A DNA stretch of 64,000 nt from Alkalispirochaeta sp. (GTDB lineage Bacteria; Spirochaetota; Spirochaetia; DSM-27196; Alkalispirochaetaceae), in NCBI GenBank assembly GCA_965242725.1, contig CBDESZ010000017.1:1-64000 (forward strand), written 5' to 3'. The position numbers are program-made. How positions within the stretch are numbered: the first letter of the stretch is position 1; each line of letters opens with the position of its first letter. Below, piece by piece: positions 12,001-18,000 of the stretch.

Positions 12001-15000
12001 TTCAGTCCGGTTCGGCCGATGATGTGAATGTCGTCGAGTCCCCAGATTTCCTCTTCATCCTGCTCGAGGATGGTGAGGTCGTAGTACCCGAACATTGAGT
12101 GGGGCTGCCAACCGAGGACGACGATGTATTCTTCATTCTGCACGGCGCTGTCGAGAGCGGCCATCATCGCAGGACCTGAGGAAGGTACAAGCTCGTAACC
12201 GGCTTCAACCAGACCGTAGGCAGGCATCGCCTCTTCTTCAGTGGTGATCATGAGACCGGCGCCGGCGTCAATCCCGGTAATCTGTCCGTTCAGCTGATCA
12301 ACAACTTCAGGATCGCGAAGGTCCGAAAGGGCGGTCACGCCGTCGTCGGCCATATACTGGGGAACGACAAGACCACTGACCGCGTCTTCATAGACAATTC
12401 CTATGTCTACAAGATCGTCGCCAAGTTCTTCCATATAGCTCGCGTGCAGACCGGGAAGCCATGCTTCCATGAAGGCATCGTAGTCACCGGCGGCAACCGA
12501 CGCATAGGCGGGACCGACGTCGGCGGCGGTGATCGTAACGTCGTAGCCCATTTCGTCTTCAAGAATTGCCTGTACAAGATGAGTGTACGCTACGCCTTCT
12601 TCCCAGTTGACGTATGCAAGGCGGGCCGTCTTGTCCATGCTTTCGGCGCCGCCGCTTTCCTGCTGACCTTCCGCAAATGCGAAGGCTGCCACTGCCATCA
12701 GCATGACGGCGAGAATAATTCGACTCATATTCTTCATATAAAACTCCTTTATATAGTTTTTCTCTCTAAATCAGTGCGTCATTTGTGCACAACTCTGTTG
12801 CGTTACAACTAAACGATAAGAAACCAGGAATTGAATGTCAAGTATTTTATAGCTTGCTAAGTAATTTTCCAGTGGTATTTTCGGCGTCGAAAACGTAAAA
12901 ACACTCATGAGTAATTCATAATTATATATATATTATGTATTTACGGGAGATCGAGTTCGTTTTTTTGACAAATATAATTCAGTAACTGGAACAATTTTAA
13001 TTATGATACGAATTTACCGCGCTCTAATATCAACGGCCGTTGCCGATCCCGCGGTTGTGTGGTAATAACAGTCATGCGACTGGCGTGTCTTGATCTTGAA
13101 GGTGTACTGGTACCGGAAATCTGGCAAAATGTTGCCCGCCGTACGGGCATCGAGGAATTACAACTCACCACACGGGATATTCCCGATTACCACAAACTGA
13201 TGAAATATCGCCTTGATATTCTGGACCGGCACGGGATTACCCTCCCGACGATCCAGGATGTGATAGCCGGAATGACTCCGCTGTCGGGGGCCCTTGAATT
13301 TGTGAACCGCGTGCGGGAGACGATGCAGTTTGTGCTCCTCTCAGATACCTTTGAAGAGTTTGCGGCACCCCTGATGCGGCAGCTTGGATACCCGACGCTT
13401 TTCTGCAACTCCCTGGAGGTAGATGAGGGAAGCGGCCGTATCGCCGGATACCGCCTGCGTCAGGAGAACGGCAAGTATCACGCCGTACGCGCATTTCGCG
13501 CCATCGGATTTGAGGTGTACGCCGCGGGCGATTCATACAACGACCTGGCGATGATCAGGGAGGCGGAGAAAGGCGCTTTTTTCACCCCGCCCGCATCGAT
13601 CGTCGACGAAAACCCGGACGTACCGGTTTGCCGTACCTACGATGAACTCTTTGAGTTCCTTTCACGGTGAGAAATGAGCCGTCCGAACCCTTCAGTACCG
13701 GCGGATCCTAGTCCGCGGTATCCCCATCCGGTGCAGGCTCACCAAGGTTCCTTATTTGCAGGGCGAGACGATAGTAGTCGACGGCGCCTTCACTCCGCAG
13801 CTGATGCTGAAAAATCGTTCTCCCGTTGCCCGGTGCTTCGGCGAGGGAACGGTTGTGATGAATCGGGGTCAAAATGAGTTTTTTCCCGAGCCGGTCCGAC
13901 AGCTCATCAAGGAGACGCTGGGAGGTTGAAGCTCCCCGGTCGTAAAAGGTCGGAATCAGGCCCCGCACCTCAAGCCCCGGATTGTAGACGCGACGTATTT
14001 TTTCAACGAGCTCGACAATTTCTATCATCCCTTCAGTGGCGAGAAAATGGGCCTGCATCGGGACGTACGCTTCCGTCGCCGCAACGAGGGCGGCTACCGT
14101 CAGGAGCTGAGTCGTCGGCGGGGTGTCAAAGACGACATAGTCAAAGGTGTCCATAACGCCCGAGAGGTGACGCCGCATAAGCAGCCGTGCGTCCTTGTTG
14201 TTTGCATATTTTCTCTCAAAGACCGCCAGCTTCCGACTCGCCGGCAGCACGCTCAATCGGGGCGTCACCGTTGACTGCAGGGCGTCGGCCGCGGGGATCT
14301 TCCCTTCAAGGACGTGACTCACGTCGTAGGTGACGCGGGAGAGGGACAGACCGAGAGACATCGTTGCATGCGCCTGGGGGTCCGTATCGATAACGAGCAC
14401 CCGGTATTTCATGTGGGCAAGGGCGGCGGCAACGTTCACCGTGGTCGTCGTCTTACCGCACCCTCCCTTTCGGTTGGTGAATACAAGGCGCCGGCTCATA
14501 CGGCGGCTCCGTGGAGATTTCGTCAAGAATATGGCGGGTAATTGCGTACAAAGGGGGAACTCCTTCCGATTTTTCCAATGGCGCTGCGAGGTTTGAGTGA
14601 GTCTGAAGGGGTAAATCGGAAACATAATAGAAGAACCGGAAGGCCACATCCCTGCTTATCACTCCGAGCTGACCGGATTCAACGATTCCGCGATAGTAGT
14701 GAGTACCTTCCATCTCTATTCCGATAACATCCCATATTTGTCGGTAGAAATTGAGCATTTGCCGGTTTTGCAGCAGTGTGCCGTCGACGGTCAGAAGGGG
14801 ACCCCGATGAACATCACCTGCGGGATAGCGTCGCATGAGCCGGTCCGCCCAGGTATCACCATTGTCATCGGAACCGGCCGCCTCAGGAAGGGGCTGAAAG
14901 AAATCACTGTGCTGCTCGACAAAGGCCGTCGGGGCGAGAATATCACCGCGTTTCCCGACCAGAGCTCCGGCCTTCCCGAGGAAATTGACGCTCTTTACAT

Positions 15001-18000
15001 TCTCCCCGAAGAGCATAAGCAGATTGCGGATCACATATTCCGCCTGCTCCCCGAATGCGTAATCGATATTGACTATATAGTCCCGGCCACCGCCGTTGCG
15101 GGGAAAGGGACGGATCCCGGGATCTATGGGCCGGGTAATTTGAGAAAGGTCGATGAGCTGCACCTGGATCCCGGTGCTTGCGGTATGGTTCAGGCGGTAT
15201 TGGCCCGCCTCCCGTGCGCTCCTTGTAAATGCCGTCAGCTCCTCCGGACGGGCGACGAAGTAGTCCGGCAGCGCCGCATACACCATGTCCTGCTCATCGT
15301 TCCACTCCGAACTTCCGACGGGATGCCCCGTCCGGCGTATCCACTGGACCACCTCATTCCGGGACTCGCCGACCCAGGGATTGAGACAGTTTGTCACCGA
15401 GTGGGTATTGCTGCTGACGATGTGTATGTTCCGGTCTTCCGGAAGGTCGCTGGGATCGAATCCGGTAACCTCCCGGGACATCCCCGCCACCGCGGAGGTC
15501 CACAGCTCGTTCCGCCTGGCGTTGTAGTTGCGTTCCCTTCGGCGGACGTCTATTGAAAACATCTCCCGGTGGCGGGTGATTTCGGATACCCGCCGCGCCG
15601 TTTCATCGCCCCAGACCTCCAGCAGGTGATCGACTTCCCGGGAGCTGAAGGCGAGGGTGTTCAGAAAGGCTCTCACCTCTTCCAGAGGCGCGGAGTCCGT
15701 CCCGGAAGACTCCTCAGGGCGTCGCATGGTACGTACAAAGTGATCCAACCGATGGAGAGCGCCGTCCCGGACCATCCGCTCCCGGATCTTCCTCGCCTCG
15801 ACGGCGTAGAGACAGAGACAGGTGACCAGATCGATGAGATCCGAGTCGCCGCTCCGCAACAGCACGAGGTTTTTACCCGGCAGAACCTCCCATATGTCCC
15901 GCCGTCGCGCCACGGTGGGGACGGACTGAAAGAAGAGATCCCCCTCGTCGAAGGGCTCCGCCAGCTCGTCGACAAGAAGGAACGCAAACGTTGCAGTCAC
16001 GTTGGCGGGCAACCGGCGCACGGCATACTGAAGGGCGGGAAAATCGATCTTGCGGACTTCCCCTACTCCCGGATGGAGCGCCGGCTGGAGCTGCCGATAG
16101 AGCGGCATGAGACGGGGAACACTGATCTGCCCCTCGCCGGCCTCGTGAATAAGCTGCGTCTTGAAGCGCTCAAAGGCGGCAAAGATGCCCTGATTGTTCC
16201 GCAGGGTGGACCCGAATCCCTGGGCGAAGGTGGGCGACTCCTGGAGGAGAGAGCGAAAACGTTCGCCCGAAAGGGCGTAGCAGACGCAGTCGGTTCGGGC
16301 GCGGACACTGAAAATACGGGGCTCCTGAAAAACCGCCTCCCACTCCCCGAAAAAATGGTTTGCCCGGATGACGGTAACGATCTCTTCCGGGGTCTTCCGC
16401 GGATCAAATACCTCCACACCTCCCGACTCGACAAGGTAGACCGACTGGTCGTTGTCATGCCGCCGGAAGACCACTTCACCCTGTCGAAAAAGCCGCTTTT
16501 CAGCGTGCTGCGCCAGCTCGTCTCGCTGGTATGGCGGAGAAAACGGAAAGGATGTATCCGTTGCAACAGGGAAGCGACGTCCATCAGCCCATCGTATCAC
16601 GGAGGGGTGGAAGTGAAAAACTGCGCTGCCACGGCGGCGGAATAGAAAGCTGTGTCGTGATTCGGGAGAGGATATTCCAGCCGTCGATATAGCTGAATCC
16701 CTCGCACAGATCGAGAAGGCTATGCAGGTCGGGAACGGACGGGTCGAAGTTGAACCTGCAGATCGGATGCTCCACGAGACCGCGAATTTGCGCCCCCGAG
16801 AGGCCCCTGCCGGCGAGAAATGCCCCGAAGGAGCTCGCCTCCACGCCGAGACGTGATCCGTCACGATCGAGGAGGTAGTCGCGGCTGTCCAGAAGCTGTT
16901 CAAAGGGACTCCGTGACATGTGTACCGCCCGTGCGATGGGCATACCGCGACGCAGGAGGCTTCCCTTCACGAGTTCAGCCTGCATGCGCGCCGCCAGTTC
17001 GAAGAAATAATTATATCCCATGGATGTACGGAAGGTCATGACGGCGATGTCCGTCCCGGCGTTGTTCTTGTGGAGCAGAGCGGGTATGTCGTAATTGACG
17101 ATCCACAGGTCGCCGTATTTCTTGACGACCTGACCGGCGATCCGGACGACGGCGCGTTCCTCGACCCACAGCGCAAAAAGCTCCTCCGGCTGCCATCCAA
17201 AGCGGCGAAGCGCGTCAAATGCACCGATAACCTTCTGCCCGTCAAAGGATTCCCCGTAAAAATCGGAGAACTGCCGGCGCATTTCCGGGGAAAATACGGA
17301 CCCGCCGTGGACGGCAAAGTACAGGCGGACGGCGTAGTGATGCTCCACTACCTGCCGTCTGATCATATCTTCACCTGGAATATTGGCCATATAGACCAGC
17401 TCGATATCGGCGTTGTCCTGCCGGCAGTCCCGAATCAGTTTAAGAATTCTGCTCTCAACGGCGACGCCGTTTGACTCGGGACGCAGGTACATGAAGACAT
17501 CGAGAATTTCCGGCCGGGGATCAGGGCCGCCATAGGGTACGAGTATCTTGGGCTTATGTGCCTTTTTTACCTCCGCCACGGTGTTCCAACAACCTTTCCA
17601 GGTCCAGTTCTCCGGCGGTGCACGGAACCTGAATACCCCACCCCTCCAACACACGGGGGTGGACTTCACCGAACACGCCAAAGACCGTCTGTGGGTCACT
17701 TTTTTTACCACCCGACGGGGCGACGATTTCCGCGGCCCTGCCCGGTATGAAGCGGGAGTCCCGAACTTCCCTCAGTTCATACTCCCGTCCCAGGTAAAAA
17801 AGTATAGCAGATATGTGGGAATTTATCATGTTGAAGCCCGCCTCACGGTCGGCACTGAGAAATCCCATGGTGGTCATAGTCGCCGTTCCGGTCACGTCCC
17901 GTTCATCCCGGAGAGCGGTCTTTCCCACCTCAAAAATGTGGTGCGGATAGACCGCATTGCCGCTCACCGCCTCCGACGACAGAAGGGAGGGAAGGATTGA

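Follow-up and report, generated by a model that had tools for sequence, protein, structure and literature searches.

Arrangement of the locus

The window analysed here, a stretch of 64,000 nucleotides from an Alkalispirochaeta sp. contig, carries g01991, which encodes a cyclic nucleotide (cNMP)-binding domain fused to DUF6909, together with the neighbours g01992 and an orphan parA (Table 1). Residue numbers of g01991 follow P0001, translated from 14453-16528, and equal those of the first-pass annotation plus 18. The 5′ frame break of g01991 that had been put down to the assembly is indeed an assembly error, with an extra base behind 16527 in short-read contigs, and a second break near the 3′ end is another (extra base behind 14508 in short-read contigs). 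The reported overlap with parA exists but, because the 3′ break is an assembly error, it measures 4 nt (ATGA) and not 47 nt.

Table 1. Genes, domains and promoter-like element at the g01991 locus.
Feature	Position	Strand	Evidence or remark
thrH, convergent, closes the locus	13074..13670	+	NF010109 E 8.3e-85
Orphan ParA/Soj-like ATPase, 263 aa, deviant Walker A K-G-G-C-G-K-T	13708..14499	-	AAA_31 E 3.2e-44
g01991, cNMP-binding domain and DUF6909, 696 aa (two assembly breaks read as X)	14496..16584	-	homologues share the same N-terminal motif at the start
C-terminal half of DUF6909 (residues 336-673), NP-I (PNP/UP/MTAN/Amn) fold; S-S-N-T-H, G-K-A-G, E-M-E-G, S-D-x-P	14510..15523	-	
N-terminal half of DUF6909 (residues 139-335), conserved helical/strand domain; R172, R210, D230, D233, E244, K247 conserved	15524..16114	-	
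cNMP-binding beta-barrel, phosphate-binding cassette G61-E62..R71	16238..16495	-	PF00027 E 1.2e-17
g01992, 331 aa, protein of probable NDK fold with ~90-residue insertion; R33, Y82, R217, H220, S222, D231	16584..17579	-	predicted model, conservation
Extended -10-like box TG-n-TACGAT, 6 nt before the ATG at 16584	16591..16599	-	probable leaderless promoter of g01991
pheS-pheT, upstream, broken by assembly indels; g01992 directly behind pheT	17554..20968	-	

A TAnnnT motif lies 5-8 nt before the candidate start in 25 of 39 loci, compared with 19 of 1258 internal codons, and a sigma-70 scan at 16584 did not return a full promoter. g01991 probably has a leaderless promoter of its own, and in this bacterial family the transcript would also carry the orphan ParA, as a later add-on.

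Domains and distribution of the g01991 protein

The fusion described in the first-pass annotation is confirmed by matches to PF00027 (residues 12-97, E 1.2e-17) and PF21850 (residues 139-671, E 1.1e-118), the latter at 397 bits against a cut-off of 27; a PNP_UDP_1 match is weak (E 0.0045). Above this cut-off, g01991 is a member of a Pfam family without described function, and our literature search for 'DUF6909', like the previous one, found no paper. The predicted model has the quality first reported (pLDDT 89.7, pTM 0.89), and the motifs singled out before (G518-K-A-G, E605-M-E-G, S637-D638 and G61-E62..R71) are kept in 117-119 of 119 spirochaete-type homologues (46-73% identity).

In the phosphate-binding cassette, the Gly, Glu and Arg are present in 119, 118 and 117 of these 119 homologues at canonical spacing, and the cNMP domain of the predicted model aligns with the SthK CNBD at Z 16.1 (rmsd 1.8 over 112 residues). 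The sequence thus supports an intact cNMP pocket. Passages of PMC10354285 give Ala as the PKA consensus at two cassette places, Glu+2 and Arg+2; these are absent here, with E64 in 113/119 and F/Y73 in 101/119 homologues. Seven class III cyclase and 20 cNMP-domain matches occur in the genome. PycTIR, the cNMP-gated acetyltransferase Pat and the EAL enzyme Bd1971 also carry an N-terminal cNMP domain on a catalytic domain, but g01991 differs from them in its catalytic domain and in lacking a cognate cyclase at the locus. We found no cNMP sensor on MTAN, DeoD or UP enzymes in the searches made.

The predicted model supports placing the C-terminal half of DUF6909 in the NP-I superfamily. Its best structural alignment is with DeoD (1xe3; Z 19.1, rmsd 2.6 over 216 residues), and UP and MTAN tie with it; Z is 19.0 to 6aym and to MTAN, 17.1 to Kp Amn and 14.2 to B. 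theta Amn. AMP nucleosidase had been named as the top Foldseek match, which did not hold: 2guw ranks 24th (E 1.8e-7, rmsd 21.8), and the top rows are MTA/SAH nucleosidases and uridine phosphorylases. Amn is the nearest subfamily to DUF6909 by profile, not by fold. With a profile of the C-terminal half, all 10 Amn-like sequences (8.7-12.0 bits, five of them below the TIGR01721 cut-off) score above all 23 controls (best 6.0), a shallow, single-phylum set of MTAN, DeoD, UP and others, and hhalign gives 96% to the Amn-like profile vs 2-77% to controls. MTA/SAH nucleosidase, DeoD-type PNP and uridine phosphorylase, with equal or better structural scores (Z 17-19) and common E-M-E and S-D motifs, have far lower profile scores. 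The DeoD/UP controls have G-D-P-x-R and R-x-G-T/S motifs, with arginines that have a phosphate role in phosphorylases; DUF6909, g01991 included, lacks these arginines, which favours hydrolysis.

[quoted passage not shown] They differ in sequence (12-16% identity in structural alignments), in the N-terminal part, which in g01991 consists of the cNMP domain and a 200-residue domain, and in range, as DUF6909 has protist orthologues whereas Amn is described, in PMC9584410, as unique to bacteria. The base and sugar residues named there, N205, M404, E405 and D428, have as counterparts N374, M606, E607 and D638 in a motif alignment to small Amn-like sequences, N374 being placed by motif position on a strand that hhalign left unaligned. 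Each is present in 119/119 homologues, and D638 in 60/60 rows of a wide alignment; passages of the same paper describe M, E and D as common even to distant NP-I enzymes. In Amn, R381 and K436 hold the 5′-phosphate and W383 stacks on the base. In g01991, T584 and L586 align to R381 and W383 (T-V-D-G-T-L-L-Q for the Amn T-T-x-x-R-x-W-E), and the K436 region is not kept, no conserved Lys following S-D-x-P. Amn is a hexamer in which H188/Y189 come from the adjoining chain; the g01991 model covers a monomer. Of the earlier AMP-nucleosidase/PNP-fold assignment, the NP-I fold, the catalytic core and the proximity to Amn by profile stand, but counterparts of R381, K436 and W383 are missing; with the phosphate residues R381 and K436 gone, an AMP nucleosidase is likely at most. 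No Amn family model among NCBIfam/Pfam matches g01991 at E up to 1, TIGR01721 has no match in its own genome, no Amn-like (TIGR01721) gene was found at E 1e-40 in 99 order genomes, and PDB sequence searches with the DUF6909 part gave nothing significant. No structural search row covers residues 116-335, which were searched as part of the full-length model.

The gene is conserved across the order, as proposed before, being present in 73 of 99 order genomes. The cNMP-fused forms are one clade (SH-aLRT 100), some with added receiver or GAF domains. Protists have the fusion as well, among them Trypanosoma conorhini and a ciliate, and in most cases their cNMP pocket has decayed; the Glu or Arg of the cassette is lost in most protist and some bacterial orthologues with the domain retained, and a cNMP domain can therefore persist without canonical binding.

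Genes next to g01991

g01992 looks like a divergent nucleoside-diphosphate kinase-like protein, a reading that its residues and, at a modest Z, the fold of its predicted model (pLDDT 93.7) speak for. Mimivirus NDK chains fill the first ten Foldseek ranks, at weak E (0.05-0.13). NDK matches in the VIA-wide comparison score Z 7.4-8.2 (best 8.2 and 8.1, rmsd 2.8 and 4.2, 133 and 148 residues aligned), a Z of 7-8 being typical also where there is no clear match; the top 10 include three titled NDK and six axonemal chains, which we take to be NDK-domain proteins. One further top-10 row is NME10/RP2, as described in part of PMC7461546. The conserved H220 (119/119) and S222 (117/119) agree with the earlier report, as does the atlas cluster (NDK on 22% of members, score 0.89; 58% Eukaryota); D231 is kept in 119/119, and none of the three residues varies across 27 rows with identities as low as 24%. 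NDK/NME K12, Y52, H118, S120 and E129, with roles taken from passages of PMC7461546, correspond to R33, Y82, H220, S222 and D231 in a motif alignment to the genome's own Ndk. g01992 differs from NDK in being twice the size, with a ~90-residue insertion and a Kpn loop ~10 residues shorter, and in having Arg at the N115 (R217) and K12 (R33) positions; T94 and R105 were not seen, and position 200 (NDK R88) is Arg in 67/119 and Lys in 26/119 homologues. It has no Pfam or profile match, profile-profile comparison against three canonical Ndk sequences, a shallow template, came out negative (probability 0.13), and a PDB search with its profiles gave nothing significant. Replacement of canonical Ndk is ruled out, with Ndk in 92 of 99 order genomes; the genome with g01992 has a canonical ndk too. 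g01992 belongs to the core genes of the order, has no name so far and carries a candidate phospho-His site.

We consider it somewhat unlikely that g01992 and g01991 form one pathway, in which an NDK-fold phospho-His enzyme would make or remove the nucleotide cleaved by DUF6909 (e.g. ADP to AMP, AMP to adenine). All 56 co-assembled pairs lie <3 kb apart (41 adjacent) and 70 of the 73 DUF6909 genomes have g01992, which would fit, as would two metagenome loci in which the slot behind pheT, directly upstream of DUF6909, holds a PF04008 gene, of a phospho-His family reported in passages of PMC10248530 to bind adenosine and AMP. However, g01992 is found in 93/99 order genomes vs 73/99 for DUF6909, in 16 other genomes of the phylum, none with DUF6909, and in only 2/80 metagenome DUF6909 loci. 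An opposite-strand gene often separates the two, DUF6909 has its own promoter-like box, and no fusion was found in 156 representatives and cluster members nor, as weak evidence, in a longer-protein search; both genes may simply sit behind pheT. The parA product has an intact deviant Walker A and an AAA_31 match, and scores under the cut-offs of all NCBIfam ParA/MinD models listed; the genome has another parA, canonical in appearance, on contig C16. The coupling to ParA put forward in the first-pass annotation is family-level only. Translational coupling holds in one family, where parA start overlaps g01991 stop in 15/15 distinct loci having ParA and parA adjoins the DUF6909 gene in 20/21 family genomes with ParA, but the ParA orthologue is present in 21/22 genomes of that family and 1/77 others, no such ParA was found beside DUF6909 in 53 genomes of other families, and the two abut in only 3/30 loci drawn across the order. 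That the orphan ParA is a cargo-positioning ATPase of the ParA/MinD type and places or regulates the enzyme would agree with the overlap, the adjacency and the Walker A, yet is very unlikely given its narrow range, a family member (G018) that keeps ParA without DUF6909, and L063 and L064, which lack DUF6909 and have another ParA-like gene at that position. The association with ParA is a local one.

Proposed function and alternatives

g01991 is probably an uncharacterised, cNMP-regulated purine nucleotide nucleosidase serving housekeeping and not defence; that it is, more specifically, a chromosomal Amn-like NP-I enzyme that hydrolyses the N-glycosidic bond of a purine nucleotide and is switched by a cyclic nucleotide seems moderately likely. 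The cyclase matches in the genome, the lack of an Amn-like gene among the 99 order genomes at E 1e-40 and the PF04008 gene of the two metagenome loci also count in its favour. AMP is our tentative choice as the likeliest substrate, and cAMP the likeliest ligand of the sensor, with cGMP possible. The analysis establishes the domains, the model's fold, the conservation, the gene structure and the distribution; we infer catalysis, substrate, ligand and direction of regulation. As in Amn, D638 would protonate the base and E605/M606/E607 would hold the ribose; N374 and K519, with conserved basic residues from the additional domain, may form a rebuilt phosphate site, and water would attack C1′. A cyclic nucleotide on the N-terminal sensor would switch the activity.

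A doubtful but serious alternative is that the NP-I enzyme acts on a different substrate or by different chemistry (as an MTA/SAH-type hydrolase, a phosphorylase, or an NMN, ADP-ribose, ADP or ATP nucleosidase), its specificity set by the 200-residue domain. The structural ties with MTAN, UP and DeoD and the missing Amn phosphate residues speak for it, and the invariant K519 with basic residues of the N-terminal half could hold a larger phosphorylated substrate, but the profile ranking favours Amn, the phosphorylase arginines are absent, and DeoD, a trimeric PNP and an MTAN-like gene already exist in this genome. We regard it as distinctly unlikely that the enzyme is not cAMP-gated, the N-terminal domain being structural or sensing AMP, a nucleoside or a non-purine cNMP. 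The atypical E64 and F/Y73 and the lower conservation of the cNMP domain (0.53) than of the catalytic half (0.64) point that way, as does retention of E62 in 6/40 and R71 in 9/40 eukaryote-like rows, compared with 27/31 and 20/31 in bacteria-like rows (grouped by tree position); against it stands the near-complete, canonically spaced Gly, Glu and Arg among spirochaete-type homologues. A sensor joined to a PNP-fold enzyme resembles Pycsar effectors and ATP nucleosidases, and its cNMP part has a weak match to PycTIR (E 5e-6; Z 15.0 to 8jsk). That g01991 is a Pycsar/CBASS-type anti-phage effector, in which a cNMP would activate a nucleosidase that depletes nucleotides, is nevertheless extremely unlikely and we reject it: the gene is single-copy, keeps to one housekeeping locus throughout the order and is neither mobile nor patchy in occurrence, with no cognate cyclase in the operon or among the neighbours scanned and no PADLOC match to the DUF6909 part. 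It occurs in 0/50,697 phage and 2/72,556 plasmid records, both large Persicobacter replicons.

A literature search found no cyclic-nucleotide-controlled nucleosidase. If true, the favoured reading of g01991 as a cNMP-switched nucleosidase would couple purine nucleotide breakdown directly to cAMP signals in free-living spirochaetes and assign a role to a Pfam DUF that is widespread. It would also put an Amn-like enzyme into protists, a Trypanosoma species among them, in which little is yet known of cAMP effectors according to passages of PMC10354285. A bolder version, which we think rather unlikely, has cNMP-DUF6909 as a cAMP-gated AMP nucleosidase draining the adenylate pool in response to a second messenger, fed by g01992 as a new NDK-fold phospho-His enzyme. 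The fusion, shared with trypanosomes, ciliates and other protists, would then give eukaryotes an Amn-type activity held to be exclusively bacterial, with a sensor that has decayed or been retuned to a different ligand. There is no support for the protist orthologue being one of the trypanosome CARP genes, and the passages of PMC10354285 name no PNP-fold CARP. g01991 and g01992 are soluble single-gene products. Stand-alone DUF6909 members form a separate clade (17/101 tree rows), and a GH3-family gene lies ahead of many of them (24/80 metagenome loci).

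Gene structure at the g01991 locus

The genes lie on the minus strand of contig C17 in this 4.3 Mb genome, whose close homologues carry Alkalispirochaeta and Spirochaeta labels, in the order pheS, pheT, g01992 (an NDK-fold candidate), g01991 (a cNMP-binding domain fused to DUF6909) and a parA-like gene, followed by the convergent thrH. Upstream of pheS lies a gene for a protein of 1108 aa, whose N-terminal part has many TPR repeats and whose long tail is acidic and rich in proline.

Coordinates of genes in the window and of related loci elsewhere
Feature	Position	Strand	Remark
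thrH	13074-13670	+	
parA-like	13708-14499	-	
g01991	14496-16584	-	
g01992	16584-17579	-	331 aa
pheS + pheT	17554-20968	-	broken in assembly
TPR protein	21008-24334	-	
Receiver/GAF form	L144:1159-3753		
Stand-alone DUF6909	L174:3315-4805		
Different ParA-like gene	L063:2438-3202		
PF04008 gene	L143:3963-4454		
PF04008 gene	L148:3569-4057		

As assembled, g01991 lacks its start, and its 3′ end reads 47 nt into parA. The first-pass annotation attributed the missing start to a probable assembly frameshift, and the short-read contigs X1 and X2 (both from one sample, which may be where this DNA comes from) indeed contain an extra base behind position 16527, as does X5, from a related strain in a separate study; X1 and X2 add a second break, with another extra base behind 14508. 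A further contig, X4, ends at both break sites, and neither extra base is visible there. With an X placed at both breaks, one reading frame of 696 codons runs uninterrupted between the ATG at 16584 and the TGA at 14496, so the organism itself has an intact g01991. The g01991 stop and the parA start overlap (ATGA), and the g01991 start has one base in common with the g01992 stop. Ten more single-base differences from the short-read contigs, between 18435 and 19868, account for the breakage of pheS and pheT; these are about ten single-base assembly errors, absent from the short-read contigs, and other broken genes of the same assembly should be doubted.

Once 20 of 59 loci had been excluded as duplicate or cut, 39 distinct ones remained, with about 2.2 candidate starts each; 25 of these have a TAnnnT box 5-8 nt ahead of a candidate start, compared with 19 of 1258 internal start-type codons. 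This enrichment, together with the box TG-n-TACGAT 6 nt ahead of the g01991 ATG, suggests that g01991 has a leaderless promoter of its own.

Domains and enzyme family of g01991

The g01991 protein (P0001) has strong matches to both cNMP_binding (E 1.2e-17) and DUF6909 (PF21850, E 1.1e-118), so the annotated fusion is real, and a weak match to PNP_UDP_1 (E 0.0045). In its predicted structure (pLDDT 89.7, alignment of 51 sequences), residues 336-676 match enzymes of the nucleoside-phosphorylase fold (NP-I), with DeoD, uridine phosphorylase and MTA/SAH nucleosidase (MTAN) tied at Z 19; no structural match to the full-length model covers residues 116-335. AMP nucleosidase (Amn) had been named as the top Foldseek match and loses that place: 2guw ranks only 24th, and a wide structural search gives the AMP nucleosidases 7uwq and 1ybf at Z 17.1 and 14.2.

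To compare NP-I subfamilies we drew on the same phylum for 10 Amn-like sequences (5 of them above the cut-off of the Amn model TIGR01721), 7 MTAN-like, 10 DeoD-like and 4 uridine phosphorylase-like ones, and added 2 further genes of the genome itself. A profile of the DUF6909 C-terminal half scores every one of the 10 Amn-like sequences higher (8.7-12.0 bits) than any of the 23 controls (top score 6.0; 3 without a row), and hhalign gives 96% to Amn profiles built from either 10 or 4 sequences versus at most 77% to the rest. For one Amn-like sequence, L091, the best PDB match is Amn 1ybf of B. thetaiotaomicron (E 3e-105). As described in parts of PMC9584410, the base and sugar residues of Amn are N205, W383, M404, E405 and D428, its phosphate residues are R381, K436, H188′ and Y189′, and distant homologues retain M404, E405 and D428 only. 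N374, M606, E607 and D638 of DUF6909 are each present in 119/119 homologues. DUF6909 also shares the S-D-x-P motif with Amn, and its K519, corresponding to the Lys of the small-Amn G-K-C-G, is retained in 40/40, 31/31 and 15/17 rows of three groups in a wide alignment; in contrast, the Amn motif T-T-x-x-R-x-W-E reads T-V-D-G-T-L-L-Q. Because the base and sugar residues and S-D-x-P are kept and the phosphate-site motif is changed, we infer that DUF6909 would act like an Amn-type N-glycosidase and is no Amn member by its phosphate site. The proposed AMP nucleosidase/PNP-fold enzyme thus keeps its NP-I fold, with Amn nearest by profile, but not the Amn phosphate-site motif. Amn-like genes are found in 0 of 99 genomes of the order at E 1e-40; this is a weak hint in favour of the Amn-like reading, since 26 of the 99 also lack DUF6909.

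In the cNMP cassette, G61 (119/119 homologues), E62 (118/119) and R71 (117/119) are conserved with canonical spacing, and E64 and F/Y73 deviate from the PKA consensus as it appears in part of PMC10354285. The matches to class III cyclases (7) and to cNMP domains (20) across the genome make a cyclic-nucleotide signal for this sensor plausible. The gene is real and conserved, and its product is probably a cNMP-regulated purine nucleotide nucleosidase, a variant of a known enzyme superfamily; AMP specifically is a tentative choice of substrate. A literature search, mostly of non-subscription journals and of main texts, found no paper on DUF6909 or the cNMP-DUF6909 architecture.

Distribution of DUF6909 and the ParA-like neighbour

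DUF6909 occurs in 73 of 99 genomes of the order (37 of 50 good ones), in keeping with the order-wide conservation claimed for the fusion, and in 2 of 151 sampled genomes of the phylum; it is nearly absent from the mobile DNA searched. When 50%-representatives were searched with a profile, there were 782 matches. Among the best 150 of these, 52 of 58 long proteins scanned have a cNMP match (E up to 0.01), and some add receiver, GAF, NADAR or DFP domains. Receiver or GAF domains precede cNMP-DUF6909 in bacterial P0274, P0268 and the L144 form, and would be additional signal inputs to the same enzyme. Two ciliate-type proteins (P0304, P0307) are extended at the C-terminus by a DFP (CoaB-like) domain, and one of the two has a NADAR domain at its N-terminus as well.

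A quick tree built from the 101 rows spanning at least 400 profile positions places cNMP-fused forms and their fragments in one clade of 84 (SH-aLRT 100), with 17 stand-alone rows apart. At least five rows are eukaryote-labelled (Colponema vietnamica, Ploeotia vitrea, Trypanosoma conorhini, Blepharisma stoltei and Sulcionema specki; 30 proteins looked up). The 40 rows grouped with these by tree position mostly keep the catalytic motifs (D638 in 38/40); E62 is found in 6/40 and R71 in 9/40. Stand-alone DUF6909 at L174 and 23 other metagenome loci is grouped with a GH3-family gene, an M23 peptidase and dTDP-sugar-type genes. GH3-family proteins are acyl-adenylate enzymes releasing AMP; the grouping may be plain synteny.

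The first-pass annotation also coupled DUF6909 to the ParA-like ATPase. This ParA/Soj-like protein, with Walker A intact and distinct from a second ParA on contig C16, is encoded from a start that overlaps the DUF6909 stop in 15/15 distinct loci having it. However, of 30 loci spread over the order only 3 have it after DUF6909, its orthologue (E 1e-55) is present in 21 of 22 genomes of its own family versus 1 of 77 others (at 42%, on a different contig), and genome G018 has the orthologue and lacks DUF6909. ParA is a family-level passenger, and the candidate NDK-fold neighbour and protist orthologues outweigh the ParA link in interest. What lies between g01992 and thrH varies; at L063 and L064, both from genomes lacking DUF6909, the g01992 homologue is followed by a different ParA-like gene.

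The candidate NDK-fold neighbour g01992

No Pfam or NCBIfam match was found for g01992. NDKs head both fold searches with its model (pLDDT 93.7), at modest scores, and aligning its motifs with those of the Ndk that this genome encodes pairs R33, Y82, H220, S222 and D231 with K12, Y52, H118, S120 and E129; H118 is the phospho-acceptor, held by E129, in part of PMC7461546. R33, R217, H220, S222 and D231 are invariant across 27 rows with identity down to 24%, which bears out the NDK-like His motif noted earlier. On its substrate side g01992 departs from NDK, with an Arg for N115, a variable R88 position, a short Kpn loop and a conserved insertion of ~90 residues. Given this substrate side, we read g01992 as a putative phospho-His transferase or phosphatase that would act on a different substrate.

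The gene has no name and belongs to the single-copy core of the order, being present in 93 of 99 genomes (50/50 good ones) alongside canonical ndk, with distant relatives in other spirochaete classes. Co-assembled g01992 and DUF6909 are at most 3 kb apart in all 56 of 56 pairs; g01992 is frequently present without DUF6909, and of 80 metagenome loci with DUF6909 just 2 include it. At two loci (L143, L148), a PF04008 gene (adenosine-specific-kinase family) is located between pheT and cNMP-DUF6909. According to parts of PMC10248530, PF04008 proteins are phospho-His carriers that bind both adenosine and AMP; activity from ADP to AMP is reported for Thermus, whereas in Thermotoga no activity was found. 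From these two loci only, the gene position separating pheT from the fusion would point to adenine nucleotides.
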